From: Escherichia phage vB_EcoM_DE7
Reading direction: 5' to 3' (one strand)
Sequence record: OL825705.1
Length of the DNA stretch: 64,000 nucleotides
Position 1 is the first letter of the stretch; every line of letters starts with the position of its first letter. The notes under the pieces are model-generated. The model saw only the letters and a list, made by a program, of their open reading frames with translations. It made no database searches and was not told the origin of the DNA. Position numbers and translations under genes: made by a program. Below, piece after piece: positions 1 through 50,255 of the stretch.

Positions 1-1469
1 CTTAAAAGCCCTTTATAAAGCTTTCTAGGGGCTTAAAAGAGCCTTAAAAGAATCTTATAAGGGTGTAAGCTTTATTATCTCGTTAGTTATCTTATTGGTA
101 TTGCTATCAATCCCTAGTGAACTACTAAAAAGGGCTTGCTAGTGTCTTAAAAGTATGTTATAGGGGCTTAAAAGTAGCTTAAAAGTTACGTAAAAGGGGC
201 TATAAAGTTACGTAAATGCTAGCCCCCTTAACATTTTCTTAACAATTTCTTAACAATCCCTACATAGTTATACTTTTAAGGCACTTGTTAGCAACTTGTT
301 AGCCCCTTGTTAAATCTCTGTTAAAACCATGTAAAAGCCTTGTAAGAGCCTTTGACATAGCCTTTAAAGCTCCTGTAAAGCACTATAAAGAGCTTTCTAC
401 ATAGTCGGGGTGTAATTACTAGGAAGGGACTTAAAAGAGCTTACAAGGAGCTATAGAGAGCTTTTAAAAGGTATGTTTAGAGAATCACTAAGATGGAAAA
501 GGGAACGATAAGAAAAGAGTAGTGACCATGTTAATAGCTTGTTAAAAAGGTTAAACACTTGTTAGGAACTTGTTAATTATCTTAACAAAATAACTCTTAA
601 AAATTAACTTGTTAGCTCTTGTTAGTCAACTGTTAAGCCTCTGTAAAGACCATGTAGCAACTGTTAAGGAACTGTTACCCTCTTGTTAAAACTGTTAAGA
701 ATCTGTTAATACCTCTGAAGAGATGTTAAGAGGTTGTAGTAACTGTTAAGAGATTGTTAAGGATATTTTAAAATTCTGCAAAGGGGATGTTACAGGGATG
801 TTAAGGGTTACCAAGCAGATATACATCATGAGGTAGATTCTACCGAATCAACTCTACAGATATTTTTGAGTTCCTTCAAAGACCCTAAAAAATGACTTGA
901 CAACTCTATTTTATAAAAAAATTAAAATTCTGAATAATTACCTATACAGTCTTCTAAAAATACAGGCATAAACAGGCTTATAAGATACCTTGTTAGTACC
1001 GTGTTAGACCTTGTGAGATAAGGTCTGTAAAGATATTCCTGTTAAGTTTGTTAAAACAGTCTATATAGAGGCTTAGTATTTCCTAGTGAACACCTATAGA
1101 GAGTATCATAGCTGACATAATGGGTTACTGTTAAGTAACACAGGTAACCTAGAGATTAAGAGGTGTATAGGGGCTTCTAAGAGGCTATAGAGAGATGGTT
1201 AAGGTGATTGTATAGGTTGTTAAGAGGGCTTGTTAGAAGGCTTGTTAGAGGGCTATTTAGAAGGTTTATACAGAGGGCTATTAAGACCACTAGATAGTTA
1301 CTAAGATACTATATAGTACTATATAACTATATATAGAGAGTAAGCTTAAGAAGGTTGCTAAGAAGGGTAGATATTTTATTCACAGATGATGGTGACCCAG
1401 AGGTTGGGACAACCGATAAAATTTTATAAAAATTAAAAAGCCCCCAATTAAGGAGGCTCTTAAGATATT
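1..1469. repeat. Non-coding repeat-dense region with short dispersed motifs (CTTAAAAG, YTGTTAAG/TTGTTAG, AAGTTACGTAAA x2, ACTATATA x3); candidate origin, terminus or regulatory hub
   Basis: No ORF of 60 aa or more on either strand; dozens of 7-12 bp motif copies visible by eye. Confidence 0.6.
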
Positions 1470-8533: not shown

Positions 8534-8768
8534 AGATAATCCTCTTGTCTTCTGTAATTTTGAAAGAACAGGTACAGACCAATTTCAGAGGATGAATAGT
8601 AGAGTGACTCTACCCTTTTTGATTCCTTACAGTGATTGGTATTTTTACCTTTCTTCGGGTTGTTTGATTTTCTCATTAAGTCTCCTTTGTAGAACAAGGC
8701 AGACCTACAGCTTTAAGTAAGATGGTACAGTAATCCATACAACAAGTCAAGAACTATTACAAGTTAAA

Positions 8769-8816
8769 AAAGTTGTTGACAAAGGACTTGACAAGGTGTA
8801 GGCTTATAAATACTTA
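8769..8816. promoter_or_regulatory. Divergent promoter region with tandem TTGACA element (GTTGACAAAGGACTTGACAAGGTGT)
   Basis: AT-rich upstream tract, two TTGACA hexamers 12 bp apart; near-identical element at 50052-50080. Confidence 0.45.
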
Positions 8817-8925
8817 GAAGATAACTTAAAAGGTTCCTCTAAAAAGGCTATTTAAACAGATATCTTTCTGGATATCTATCTTTTATCTTAAAAGCCTTTT
8901 AAGAGGTCTTATAAGAGGCATACCA

Positions 8926-9297
8926 ATGAAAAACAGAACAAACAAAGGCCAGTTTAAAAAAGGCCAGTCTGGAAACCCATCTGGAAGACCAAAAGGCTCT
9001 CGTAACAAAAGCTCTCTCGTAAAAGCTCAGCTGACCATTGATAATTCTGCTGAGTTTGCTGCAAAGTTGTTTGAGGCAATTGTTACAAGGGACGCTGCTA
9101 AGCTTGCAGAGTTCGGTTTGACGACTGACGATGTAAACCTGAAGTCAATGATGGAAGCTGGTAAAACTATCATGACCCACTCAGCAGGTGAGATGAAAGC
9201 AATTGCAGCAGACACTAAGAAGACCCCTGATAACGGTGGTCAGTCTCAGACAGATAACAAACCAACGTTCTCTGCTGTAGCGACTCTCAAAAAATAA
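8926..9297 (+). CDS. hypothetical basic protein with KGQSGNPSGRPKG motif (123 aa)
   Basis: ATG with AAGAGG RBS; Gly/Pro/basic N-terminal motif; function unknown. Confidence 0.5.
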   Translation: MKNRTNKGQFKKGQSGNPSGRPKGSRNKSSLVKAQLTIDNSAEFAAKLFEAIVTRDAAKLAEFGLTTDDVNLKSMMEAGKTIMTHSAGEMKAIAADTKKTPDNGGQSQTDNKPTFSAVATLKK

Positions 9298-16833: not shown

Positions 16834-16854
16834 TTCTATTTGCGGAGGTGCTTA

Positions 16855-18456
16855 ATGGATTTAAATGCTGTTAAGCAGAAGCGAGTGGAAGATGTTAGGA
16901 AAGTCCTAGCTGGAGAGTTGGGGCTTTCTGATGAAGTAAAAGAAATTATTAAATCATTCGGTAAAGACCCCTCTAAATTCCTTCCAACTCAAATTCTGAC
17001 TTTATTAAGATACACACCAGACCAAGTTAGACTTATCTTCAAATTGATGACTGATAAGAATTATGTAGCCCCTCAACCGGGTTCTCAAGAGGTCTTTTTA
17101 AATACTAATGCTGACTTGGTTTTATATGGTGGTGCTGCTGGTGCTGGTAAAACTGCTGCATTGTTAATGGACTCTTTAAGGTTTATTGAAGACCCTAACT
17201 ATAATGCTGTATATTTTCGTAGAAATACAACACAGTTACAAGGTGGTTTATGGCCTGCTGCAAAGAAACTATTTGGTAAGTTTGGTGGGGTTCCTCACGA
17301 GCAGAAGATGACTATCACATTCCCTTCTGGGGCAACTATTAAGTTCACCTACCTAGAACTTGAAAAGCACGCTGAAGGTCATCAGGGTATTGAATACTCA
17401 GCTATCTACTTTGACGAAGGCACACACTTCTCTGCTTCACAGATTTCATACCTACAGACCCGTCTACGTTCTGGTGCTGAAGGTGATTCATACATGAAGA
17501 TTTCTATGAACCCAGATAGAGACCACTTCATTTATGATTGGGTAGAGCCATTCTTAGATGAAGAAGGTTACCCAGACCCTGAGAAATGTGGTCGTATTCG
17601 TTGGTATGTTATGAATGATGGTGTGATGGTTTCTGATTGGGAGAGAGACAAGATTCTTGAAATGTTCCCTCTTGAGATTCCTCAGACATACACCTTCATC
17701 TCTGGTACGATTGATGATAACCCAATTCTTGACTTCTTAGAGCCTAAATATCGTGGTAAGTTGGAAAACAACACACCTGTAAACGTTGCAAGACTTCGTT
17801 TCGGTAACTGGAAGGCTCGTGCAGAAGGTTCAAACTATTGGCAAAGACAATGGTGTGAGATTGTTGATTCACTACCAGAAGATGTGTTTGATGTCAGAGC
17901 ATGGGACTTAGCAGCGACTTTACCATCCGAAATTAACCCTAACCCAGACTGGACAGCGGGTGTTAAGATGGGTAAATCTAAAAAAGACGGTTGCTATTAT
18001 ATCATTGATGTAGTAAGATTTAGAGATAGACCCTCTGGAGTCGAAACACAAATTAATTTGACTGCTGAAAGTGACGGTAAGCGAACTGGTATTTTTATCC
18101 CTCAAGACCCAGGCGCTGCTGGTAAATCCTATGCAACATCCCTCATCAGGAAACTTGCCGAGAAAGGTTATCGCGCAAGAGCTAAACCAACAAATAAAGA
18201 TAAAGTTACCCGCTTTGCGGGATTTTCTGCTGCTTCTGAAGCTGGACTTGTAAAAGTCTTGAGAGGTAGTTGGAACGAAGCTTATTTCCAAGAACTTGAA
18301 GGTTTTTGTGGTGATGGCAAAACTAAAGATGACCAAGTGGATGCTACCAGTGATGCTTTCAACAGTCTTAATGAAGTTAAATTATTCAAGCCACCATCAA
18401 TGGGTGCTCACACAGACTTAGTGAGAGGAAACCCATATGAGGGGCTTAGACGTTGA
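16855..18456 (+). CDS. terL: terminase large subunit
   Basis: Walker A LYGGAAGAGKT, ATPase then nuclease-domain layout; ATG at 16855 preceded by GGAGG. Confidence 0.8.
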   Translation: MDLNAVKQKRVEDVRKVLAGELGLSDEVKEIIKSFGKDPSKFLPTQILTLLRYTPDQVRLIFKLMTDKNYVAPQPGSQEVFLNTNADLVLYGGAAGAGKTAALLMDSLRFIEDPNYNAVYFRRNTTQLQGGLWPAAKKLFGKFGGVPHEQKMTITFPSGATIKFTYLELEKHAEGHQGIEYSAIYFDEGTHFSASQISYLQTRLRSGAEGDSYMKISMNPDRDHFIYDWVEPFLDEEGYPDPEKCGRIRWYVMNDGVMVSDWERDKILEMFPLEIPQTYTFISGTIDDNPILDFLEPKYRGKLENNTPVNVARLRFGNWKARAEGSNYWQRQWCEIVDSLPEDVFDVRAWDLAATLPSEINPNPDWTAGVKMGKSKKDGCYYIIDVVRFRDRPSGVETQINLTAESDGKRTGIFIPQDPGAAGKSYATSLIRKLAEKGYRARAKPTNKDKVTRFAGFSAASEAGLVKVLRGSWNEAYFQELEGFCGDGKTKDDQVDATSDAFNSLNEVKLFKPPSMGAHTDLVRGNPYEGLRR

Positions 18457-40032: not shown

Positions 40033-40400
40033 AGTGGCTAGAGGAGGCTTTTAAAAATAATATTGGTGCAATTGTAGTTGGTATTCTTAGTGTTATTGGG
40101 ATGTATACCACCATGCAAGTTTCGGAAGGTAAACAAGAAGTGTCTATCACAACAAAATTACAGCAGTTAGATAATTATTCCAAAAGTAATTATTCAGCTA
40201 TTCGTGATTTACAGTCTGATATGAGGCTGCTTCAGCTAGGGATGGAGAACCAGAAAGTCCAGTTAGAGAATGTTAAGGGTGAGAACGCAAAACTTACTAA
40301 AACCCTTGATAAATTCTCTGACAGTGTGAACAATCTGGCTCAATCAGTATCAGCCCTCCAAGCTATTACTGAAAAGAACACAAAGAATACTGAAAAGTAA
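40029..40400 (+). CDS. membrane-anchored coiled-coil protein (123 aa)
   Basis: TM helix IGAIVVGILSVIGMYTT followed by helical heptad-like region. Confidence 0.4.
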   Translation: MKWLEEAFKNNIGAIVVGILSVIGMYTTMQVSEGKQEVSITTKLQQLDNYSKSNYSAIRDLQSDMRLLQLGMENQKVQLENVKGENAKLTKTLDKFSDSVNNLAQSVSALQAITEKNTKNTEK

Positions 40401-50051: not shown

Positions 50052-50080
50052 AAGCAAGTTGACAATGTACTTGACAAGGT
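50052..50080. promoter_or_regulatory. Divergent promoter region with tandem TTGACA element (GTTGACAATGTACTTGACAAGGTGT)
   Basis: Near-identical to the element at 8773-8800. Confidence 0.45.
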
Positions 50081-50255
50081 GTTAATCTTTGCGAAGTGGG
50101 TTTTTACTTAAAAGGTTACTTAACAGTTTAACTATACAGATACTTTAAAACTCTTAAAAGATTATTTAATAGCTTTTAAAAAGCTTTAAAGTATAACGTA
50201 TAGAATACGTTAAGATAAAAGATTAAAACTTAATAGTTACTTAAAAGAGGCTTAC

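Follow-up and report, generated by a model that had tools for sequence, protein, structure and literature searches.

Phased repeat arrays in and around the probable direct terminal repeat of a Felix O1-like phage are candidate recognition sites for genome packaging

What function could be served by 1,469 bp of phage DNA that carry no gene and are crowded with short repeats? This is the question raised by positions 1-1469 of the window, that is, the whole stretch of 64,000 nucleotides from Escherichia phage vB_EcoM_DE7 (OL825705.1) that was analysed. A preliminary description of this DNA offered three possible answers: an iteron-type replication origin, a packaging or terminus region, or a dense array of binding sites. 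The answer that we favour, to which we give, as a whole, a probability of roughly 0.6, is that this is the genome-end (concatemer-junction) region and that its arrays serve in genome-end recognition for packaging. The identity of the feature is ordinary: it is the direct terminal repeat (DTR) region of Felixounavirus, which has been annotated already in a few relatives. What is new here are the inverted elements at the borders of the repeat, the switch in motif polarity and the subfamily-wide phased arrays, which are an instance of a T7-type layout. Our literature search showed that DTRs have been reported in the family and found no description of motif arrays or inverted border elements; the PhageMaP paper on Bas63 mentions intergenic insertions, and we found nothing in it on the genome-end region.

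A gene-free gap and its phased motifs

The window comes from a Felixounavirus (a Felix O1-like myovirus), and its positions 1-1500 match 254 phage records at 76-92% identity. Region 1-1469 makes up most of a 1.6-1.75-kb gap, common to Felixounavirus, Suspvirus and Mooglevirus, that lies between two convergent, terminator-bounded gene blocks. The gap is truncated by the start of the window; in relatives, it reaches ~270 bp further left, to a plus-strand block of small early-type genes that ends in two GC hairpins, with a T run after the second, and whose members next to the gap are annotated as hypothetical proteins. To its right is a minus-strand block, which is closed by an intrinsic terminator at 1436-1461 (minus strand; AAGAGCCTCC-TTAATT-GGGGGCTTTT, then a T run). 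Transcription coming from either side would halt at these terminators before the region. The two minus-strand ORFs that adjoin the region (1470-2063 and 2032-2496) have matches in PHROGs, all of them to families of unknown function, and none in Pfam, while a search for more distant relatives of the locus found homologues of the first ORF confined to the same three genera. A Felix O1-type junction was also seen at 135802-136727 of GU169904.1 (Staphylococcus phage SA1, a 147-kb record), over the full query and at 86% identity, which probably reflects a chimeric or contaminated assembly.

Could the region encode small proteins or a structured RNA? In some records, 'hypothetical proteins' of 37-60 aa are indeed annotated here, which is what speaks for such a product. 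Yet the longest ORFs in region 1-1469 are of 35 and 37 aa, both with GTG starts, so that the earlier statement that there is no ORF of at least 60 codons can be tightened to not even one of at least 40 codons. Five of the 12 genomes compared are without any ORF of at least 40 aa in the gap, and the ORFs of the remainder lie at non-matching positions; the possibility, raised at the outset as a potential refutation, that homologous regions encode proteins therefore falls away, there being no conserved ORF in the gap of these 12 genomes. Moreover, indels track the repeat unit (11, 12, 22 or 44 bp) and not codons, Rfam returned no family (the best E value, 0.11, is at noise level and falls on the terminator) and ARAGORN found no tRNA. 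A coding or RNA product, which we regard as scarcely credible, was thus rejected, and annotators should not fill this 1.7-kb 'empty' gap with small hypothetical ORFs.

What fills the region instead is a set of recurring motifs, and the repeats that had been noticed by eye are real and far beyond chance. The sequence TGTTA(A/G) occurs 27 times between 286 and 1243, preceded by C or T in 23 of these copies, and TTGTTAG eight times in 1-1469, in keeping with the many copies of (C/T)TGTTA(A/G) and TTGTTAG first noted. The eight or so copies of CTTAAAAG announced for 1-470 turn out to be seven exact copies (at 1, 32, 43, 146, 167, 178 and 430) and a reverse one (at 273). The palindrome CTTTATAAAG is where it was said to be (11-20), ACTATATA does occur three times (at 1308, 1318 and 1326) and AAGTTACGTAAA twice on the plus strand (at 183 and 205), the original spacing of 11 bp for the latter being approximate, with 22 bp from start to start and 10 nt between the copies. 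Most motifs are variants, with an AT-rich centre, of one general 8-mer, CTNNNNAG, among them CTTAAAAG, CTTGTTAG, CTGTTAAG, CTGTAAAG, CTATAAAG and others.

The excess of these motifs was measured against 2000 first-order Markov simulations of the region. There are 57 copies of CTNNNNAG in 1-1469 versus 10.3 +/- 3.1 expected, 27 of TGTTAR versus 2.0 +/- 1.4 (with a maximum of 8 in any simulation), seven of CTTAAAAG versus 0.21, and eight of TTGTTAG versus 0.29, which disposes of the objection, foreseen in the preliminary description, that the motifs might be no more frequent than base composition predicts. The same picture emerges from a comparison with the other 62.5 kb of the window, in which the density is 1.0/kb for TGTTAR (18/kb in the region) and 0.13/kb for CTTAAAAG (4.8/kb in the region), and a scan of the 64-kb window revealed no other 300-bp stretch with a comparable motif density. 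The arrays are also phased on the DNA helix: 12 of 29 intervals between TGTTA cores are of exactly 11 bp, 21 of 56 intervals between CTNNNNAG copies are of 10-12 bp, and the periods reported by Tandem Repeats Finder for the region are mostly of 11-12 bp. Finally, they are strongly polar, with TGTTA on the plus strand 30 times and its complement TAACA five times.

The direct terminal repeat

Comparison with the genome ends of relatives, which had been proposed as a check, found DTR borders at 222 and 812, and it is the terminus part of the earlier proposal that is upheld by this match to exactly 222-812. We consider it very probable, on the strength of ends transferred from relatives' records, that this 591-bp segment is the DTR, which in a mature genome would begin with GCCCCCTTAACAT and finish with ATGTTAAGGGTTACC. 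Bases 1-581 of Pr103Blw (MW481326.1), annotated as 'short direct terminal repeat region', align with it end to end. The record of NBEco005 opens and closes with the same 651 bp, that of Mooglevirus HP1 with an annotated repeat of 570 bp, and both map to 222-812. Judged by such homology, one sequence would be found at both ends of the virion DNA, the end-duplications of NBEco005, HP1, Pr103Blw and Erwinia phage M7 all mapping to 222-812. These Ounavirinae repeats (581 bp in Pr103Blw, 570 bp in HP1, 651 bp in NBEco005 and 444 bp in M7) are the same element, of which the window has a single copy, as would be seen at a concatemer junction or after an assembler had collapsed two copies.

This is in line with published work on the family. 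PhageTerm results have been reported for relatives (PMC8303462, PMC11737134), including two 581-bp terminal repeats in Pr103Blw (PMC8303462), direct repeats at both termini were described for HP1 (PMC9120918), and for Mooglevirus KMM2, too, a Nanopore assembly had a DTR at its end. As for Felix O1, short terminal repeats were inferred from its genome size (PMC3185647). The ends of relatives derive mostly from PhageTerm or from assemblies.

The termini appear fixed and sequence-specific among independent isolates. The borders of Pr103Blw, NBEco005 and HP1 are identical, the window differing by one base, a T for C at 808; the left border reads ...ACGTAAATGCTA / GCCCCCTTAACAT... and the right border ...GTTAAGGG(C/T)TACC / AAGCAGATATACA..., where the slash marks the end of the repeat. 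Of 60 records sampled evenly from the 251 that match, eight have a DTR border as their exact start, in either orientation: D4, H12, SeKF_63, Pr103Blw and HP1 at the left border, and ECP2307, SPJ41 and NBEco004, in reverse orientation, at the right border. The 281 matching places are spread over 251 records, ~30 of which have more than one, as expected if both copies of the DTR had been deposited. BPS15Q2 (NC_031939.1) is an outlier: the first base of its record lies 14 bp upstream of the consensus border, no second copy of the DTR closes the record, and its deposited ends probably differ from the physical ones. The practical outcome is a set of true ends (GCCCCCTTAACAT ... GTTAAGGGCTACC) for ~250 Felix O1-like genomes (254 matching records), a group in which many phages serve in the typing and biocontrol of Salmonella and E. 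coli.

Anatomy and conservation of the arrays

Upstream of the DTR, in what would be unique sequence at the right end of mature DNA, 1-221 is an array of CTTAAAAG-type CTNNNNAG 8-mers on the plus strand, often GGGGCTTAAAAG, spaced by 10-12 bp; in relatives, it extends ~270 bp to the left of the window, up to the terminators of the plus-strand early genes. The two AAGTTACGTAAA units, with a period of 22 bp (183-216, plus strand), come directly before the left border and number from one to four among relatives. The number of repeat units varies elsewhere too, since one 11-bp GGGGCTTAAAA unit of the window (27-37) is extra and found otherwise only in HK3, a 23-nt insertion (94-116) is private to the window, and in phage ph2-2 the left DTR border is preceded by AAGTTACGTAAAAG units that amount to 44 extra bp.

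Polarity changes at the left border itself. The left border element (225-256, minus strand) consists of CCCTTAACAT followed by two more TTAACA, so that the first 35 bp of the DTR contain three TTAACA (at 228, 239 and 250, i.e. 11 bp apart), which are the TGTTAA motif inverted. From there on, forward TGTTA(A/G) arrays occupy 286-807 (plus strand), with 21 TGTTA cores mostly 9-11 or 20 bp apart, and within this span is a central palindrome, TTGTTAA-TTATC-TTAACAA (570-588), that lies in the sole 30-bp block 100% identical in Suspvirus and Mooglevirus. The right border element, ATGTTAAGGGTTACC (798-812, plus strand), mirrors the left one, its first 10 nt being an inverted copy of the CCCTTAACAT at 225-234. 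Copies of CCCTTAACAT thus stand at 225-234 (plus strand) and 798-807 (minus strand), and there are three in 64 kb versus 0.16 expected. The symmetry is imperfect, as the distance from TTAACAT out to the end of the DTR is 6 bp on the left and 8 bp on the right. The third exact CCCTTAACAT, at 40270-40279 (minus strand), is far from the genome-end region and probably due to chance.

Just beyond the right border is the block AAGCAGATATACATC (813-827, plus strand), of which AGATATACA is kept even in M7. It is followed by a hairpin insertion, ATGAGGTAGATTCTACCGAATCA (828-850, plus strand; 23 nt as matched, in a 24-column alignment gap), which is present in some close relatives and absent at the same site in others. 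It is probably a small mobile palindromic element, outside the conserved machinery, because its presence varies among relatives. It is single-copy, the search for further copies in the 64-kb window having found none. Similar inserts were seen in nataliec, SUSP1, Moogle and HP1 (loci L006 and L013), and look-alikes of the form ATGAGATAGA(A/T)TCTATCGAATCC occur elsewhere in the gap of other genomes. Next comes a conserved AT-rich block that is promoter-like (865-935, plus strand), with TTGACA at 897-902 and TAAAAT at 923-928, the 20-nt spacer being off-consensus; a sigma-70 promoter scan did not call this block, and the scan was uninformative for the region (10 sites versus 7.0 +/- 2.7 in shuffles). 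Arrays downstream of the DTR (977-1290, plus strand) consist of CTTGTTAG, CTGTTAAG, CTATAGAG, AGRGGCTTGTTAG and 12-bp units AG(A/G)GGCTTGTTAG, one of which (1223-1234) is extra in the window when compared with relatives. The last element is a cluster of ACTATATA / CTATATAG palindromes (1307-1335), kept in four of four sampled genomes of other genera.

How well is this layout conserved? Between the window and four genomes of Suspvirus and Mooglevirus, identity within the DTR is 94.8% at TGTTA/TAACA cores versus 69.4% at the other positions, a contrast that is partly inflated because aligners anchor on repeats; the same contrast among close relatives is 98.6% versus 86.8%. Alignment-free counts are steady in all 12 genomes, with 19-30 TGTTAR and 58-70 CTNNNNAG. 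While the neighbouring protein falls to 47% identity in Moogle, DTR DNA holds 77-79%. In the Kolesnikvirus M7, whose sequence is barely alignable, the exact 444-bp end repeat has the same layout: TAACA copies in its left half, 11 TGTTAR (of the TGTTAAG type) towards its right, AGATATACA just past its right border and, in the upstream flank, a phased array made of 15 copies of a different 8-mer, CTTCTAAG. As far as these comparisons go, the architecture of the DTR is older than sequence similarity, which argues for protein-binding sites over slippage debris.

Such debris would be all there is if the repeats had no function and had arisen by slippage of replication in a spacer devoid of genes, with the border sequences the one part that matters. 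Polymorphism in unit number is certainly common, and indels of 11, 12, 22 and 44 bp are frequent among relatives (12 genomes compared), but slippage would not leave cores 95% conserved and spacers 69% across genera, nor array positions and orientation kept in four genera, Kolesnikvirus included, nor non-coding DNA better conserved than the adjacent gene. We find this explanation highly improbable. The 'dense array of binding sites' of the preliminary description, for its part, gains indirect support from helical phasing and from cores that are better conserved than spacers, both of which suggest that the motifs may be bound by a protein.

Predicted role in packaging

How might such arrays work? 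In replicated concatemers, neighbouring genomes would share one copy of the DTR, with 1-221 being the last unique bases of the right end of one genome and 813-1469 the first unique bases of the left end of the next. A sequence-specific DNA-binding partner would direct the large terminase (TerL) to both borders, the inverted border elements presenting the same site on opposite strands, and TerL would cut between 221 and 222 and between 812 and 813. The DTR would then be duplicated by strand-displacement synthesis, as has been proposed for the terminal repeat of T7. The TGTTAAG-type motifs of the DTR and the CTTAAAAG-type motifs of the flanks, ~11 bp apart, would form a binding track on one face of the helix for the partner or for another end-binding protein. 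TerL, which would make these cuts, is encoded at 16840-18456 (plus strand; Pfam Terminase_6N, 8.7e-43, and Terminase_6C, 4.4e-33), a gene annotated as terminase large subunit in Pr103Blw. Binding of a protein to the arrays, the identity of that protein and the chemistry of cutting are all features that we infer, and we see the odds that the arrays have the predicted role in packaging recognition as about even.

The closest analogue is bacteriophage T7, which has a short exact direct terminal repeat, fixed ends and a gene-free junction. Its 160-bp repeat is followed by 12 one-orientation copies of C(C/A/T)TAAAG 13 bp apart, and more copies are found inside the repeat and in the other flank; the flanking repeats were reportedly called SRL and SRR by Dunn and Studier in 1983. 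Common to both phages are one-orientation arrays of 7-8-bp AT-rich motifs ending in AAAG, about one helical turn apart, on both flanks and inside the repeat, the flanking arrays being represented here by the CTNNNNAG copies at 1-221 and 977-1290. The analogy is structural, as there is no sequence homology, and there are several other differences: (i) the phage studied here is a myovirus with a Terminase_6-type TerL, (ii) its repeat is of 591 bp versus 160 bp and houses most motif copies, (iii) it has a second motif family, TGTTAAG, which flips orientation at the left border and (iv) its period is 11 bp versus 13 bp. The function of the T7 flanking arrays is, to our knowledge, unproven, and the analogy therefore does not establish function. 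It does mean that there is now a second, independent system in which the role of the long-known arrays beside the T7 terminal repeat can be addressed.

Other packaging systems are more distant. The hexamers of P1 pac, the R sites of lambda cosB and the pacL/pacR boxes of SPP1 are short repeats bound by a recognition subunit, and they resemble the present arrays in that several short repeats flank a terminase cut site. However, theirs are 3-7 repeats within 100-200 bp, in cos or headful packaging, whereas here dozens of repeats are spread over 1.5 kb and the two cuts are fixed, with 591 bp between them.

Iteron origins and ParR-parC centromeres (11-bp iterons) also have phased direct repeats, on which a protein filament could assemble cooperatively; the present locus differs from them by having no adjacent initiator or partition genes, by belonging to a lytic phage and by an array polarity tied to the genome ends. 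The arrays could be the iterons of a replication origin in or beside the DTR, to which an initiator binds to melt the AT-rich block at ~865-935. This idea would account for the many phased direct repeats next to a conserved AT-rich block and for a site shielded from transcription, and T7 has secondary origins near its genome ends. It fares less well on specifics: next to the region there is no gene for an initiator or for replication, and the genes that are there encode small proteins of unknown function; the cores are of 8 bp at an 11-bp period versus 17-22 bp for iterons; and DnaA boxes are not enriched (8 versus 10.4 expected in the window), with a single one, TTATTCACA at 1376, in the region. 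In addition, the switch in array polarity coincides exactly with the DTR borders, which points to end processing. An origin, the first of the functions considered initially, is thus left with no specific support and is, in our view, quite unlikely.

A different possibility is that the arrays dock a protein, of the phage or of its host, that protects the ends, controls ejection or silences transcription, and not the packaging enzyme. The DNA that enters the cell first and the DNA that enters it last would both carry arrays, their AT-rich cores suit minor-groove binders, and the terminal repeat of T5, with its repeat-rich injection-stop region, is comparable in spirit. Outside the genome ends, CTTAAAAG-type motifs are found again in two sets of leaders, those of the divergent promoter regions at ~8.8 and ~50.1 kb, which suggests a general DNA-binding regulator and means that this motif family may have a transcription-related rather than a packaging role. 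Set against this are the absence of support for two-step ejection in this family, TGTTAR arrays that occur nowhere else in the 64 kb and the marking of both cut sites by inverted motif copies, and we deem this reading unlikely. The two promoter regions (8760-8925 and 50060-50255) share tandem boxes, GTTGACAA-N5-CTTGACAAGGTGT. Behind these boxes come leaders of 130-190 nt in which CTTAAAAG-type motifs are phased and the final motif overlaps the ribosome-binding site (CTTAAAAGAGG..ATG).

A candidate recognition protein

If the arrays serve in packaging, as we favour, which protein might read them? No annotation of a small terminase (TerS) was found in the family, and none was identified in the Felix O1 paper (PMC3185647). 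The arrays are concrete, conserved candidate recognition sites for a packaging system without a known small terminase. A candidate for this small terminase-like recognition subunit, and we infer its role, is a 123-aa DUF5681 protein (8926-9297, plus strand), which may be the subunit reported missing in Felix O1. Its gene, the first after a divergent promoter, is 7.5 kb upstream of that of TerL, from which it is separated by a Ro60-like gene and a tRNA cluster; in a distant metagenomic relative (loci L024/L025), the DUF5681 gene overlaps the start of the TerL gene, which is the canonical TerS position.

The protein has an invariant, AT-hook-like motif, GNPxGRPKGS(R/K)NK, and its GRPKGS(R/K)NK arm matches nine of 12 residues of an HMGA1 AT-hook in BLASTP. 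The resemblance rests on this 12-residue match because the Pfam AT_hook model was not reported for the protein even at E 10. Searches of NCBIfam and of PDB sequences with the protein returned nothing. Its AF2 model is a helical hairpin of moderate confidence (pLDDT 68), for which the best Foldseek matches in the PDB have E > 2, the TerS of P74-26 and G20c coming up only at E 6.3. One scheme would make the arrays the docking track of a DUF5681 small terminase, an oligomer of which would place its AT-hook arms in successive minor grooves ~11 bp apart, while the inverted border copies would set both cuts. We regard this as doubtful; if true, it would mean terminase recognition by AT-hooks and not by helix-turn-helix domains.

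The gene next to it (9379-10794, plus strand) encodes a Ro60/TROVE-like protein (DUF2828 and DUF7788; 'RNA-binding protein' in PHROGs) and lies directly upstream of the tRNA cluster, an arrangement of a Ro60-like gene beside a tRNA cluster that has been noted for gp130 of Bas63 in the PhageMaP preprint.
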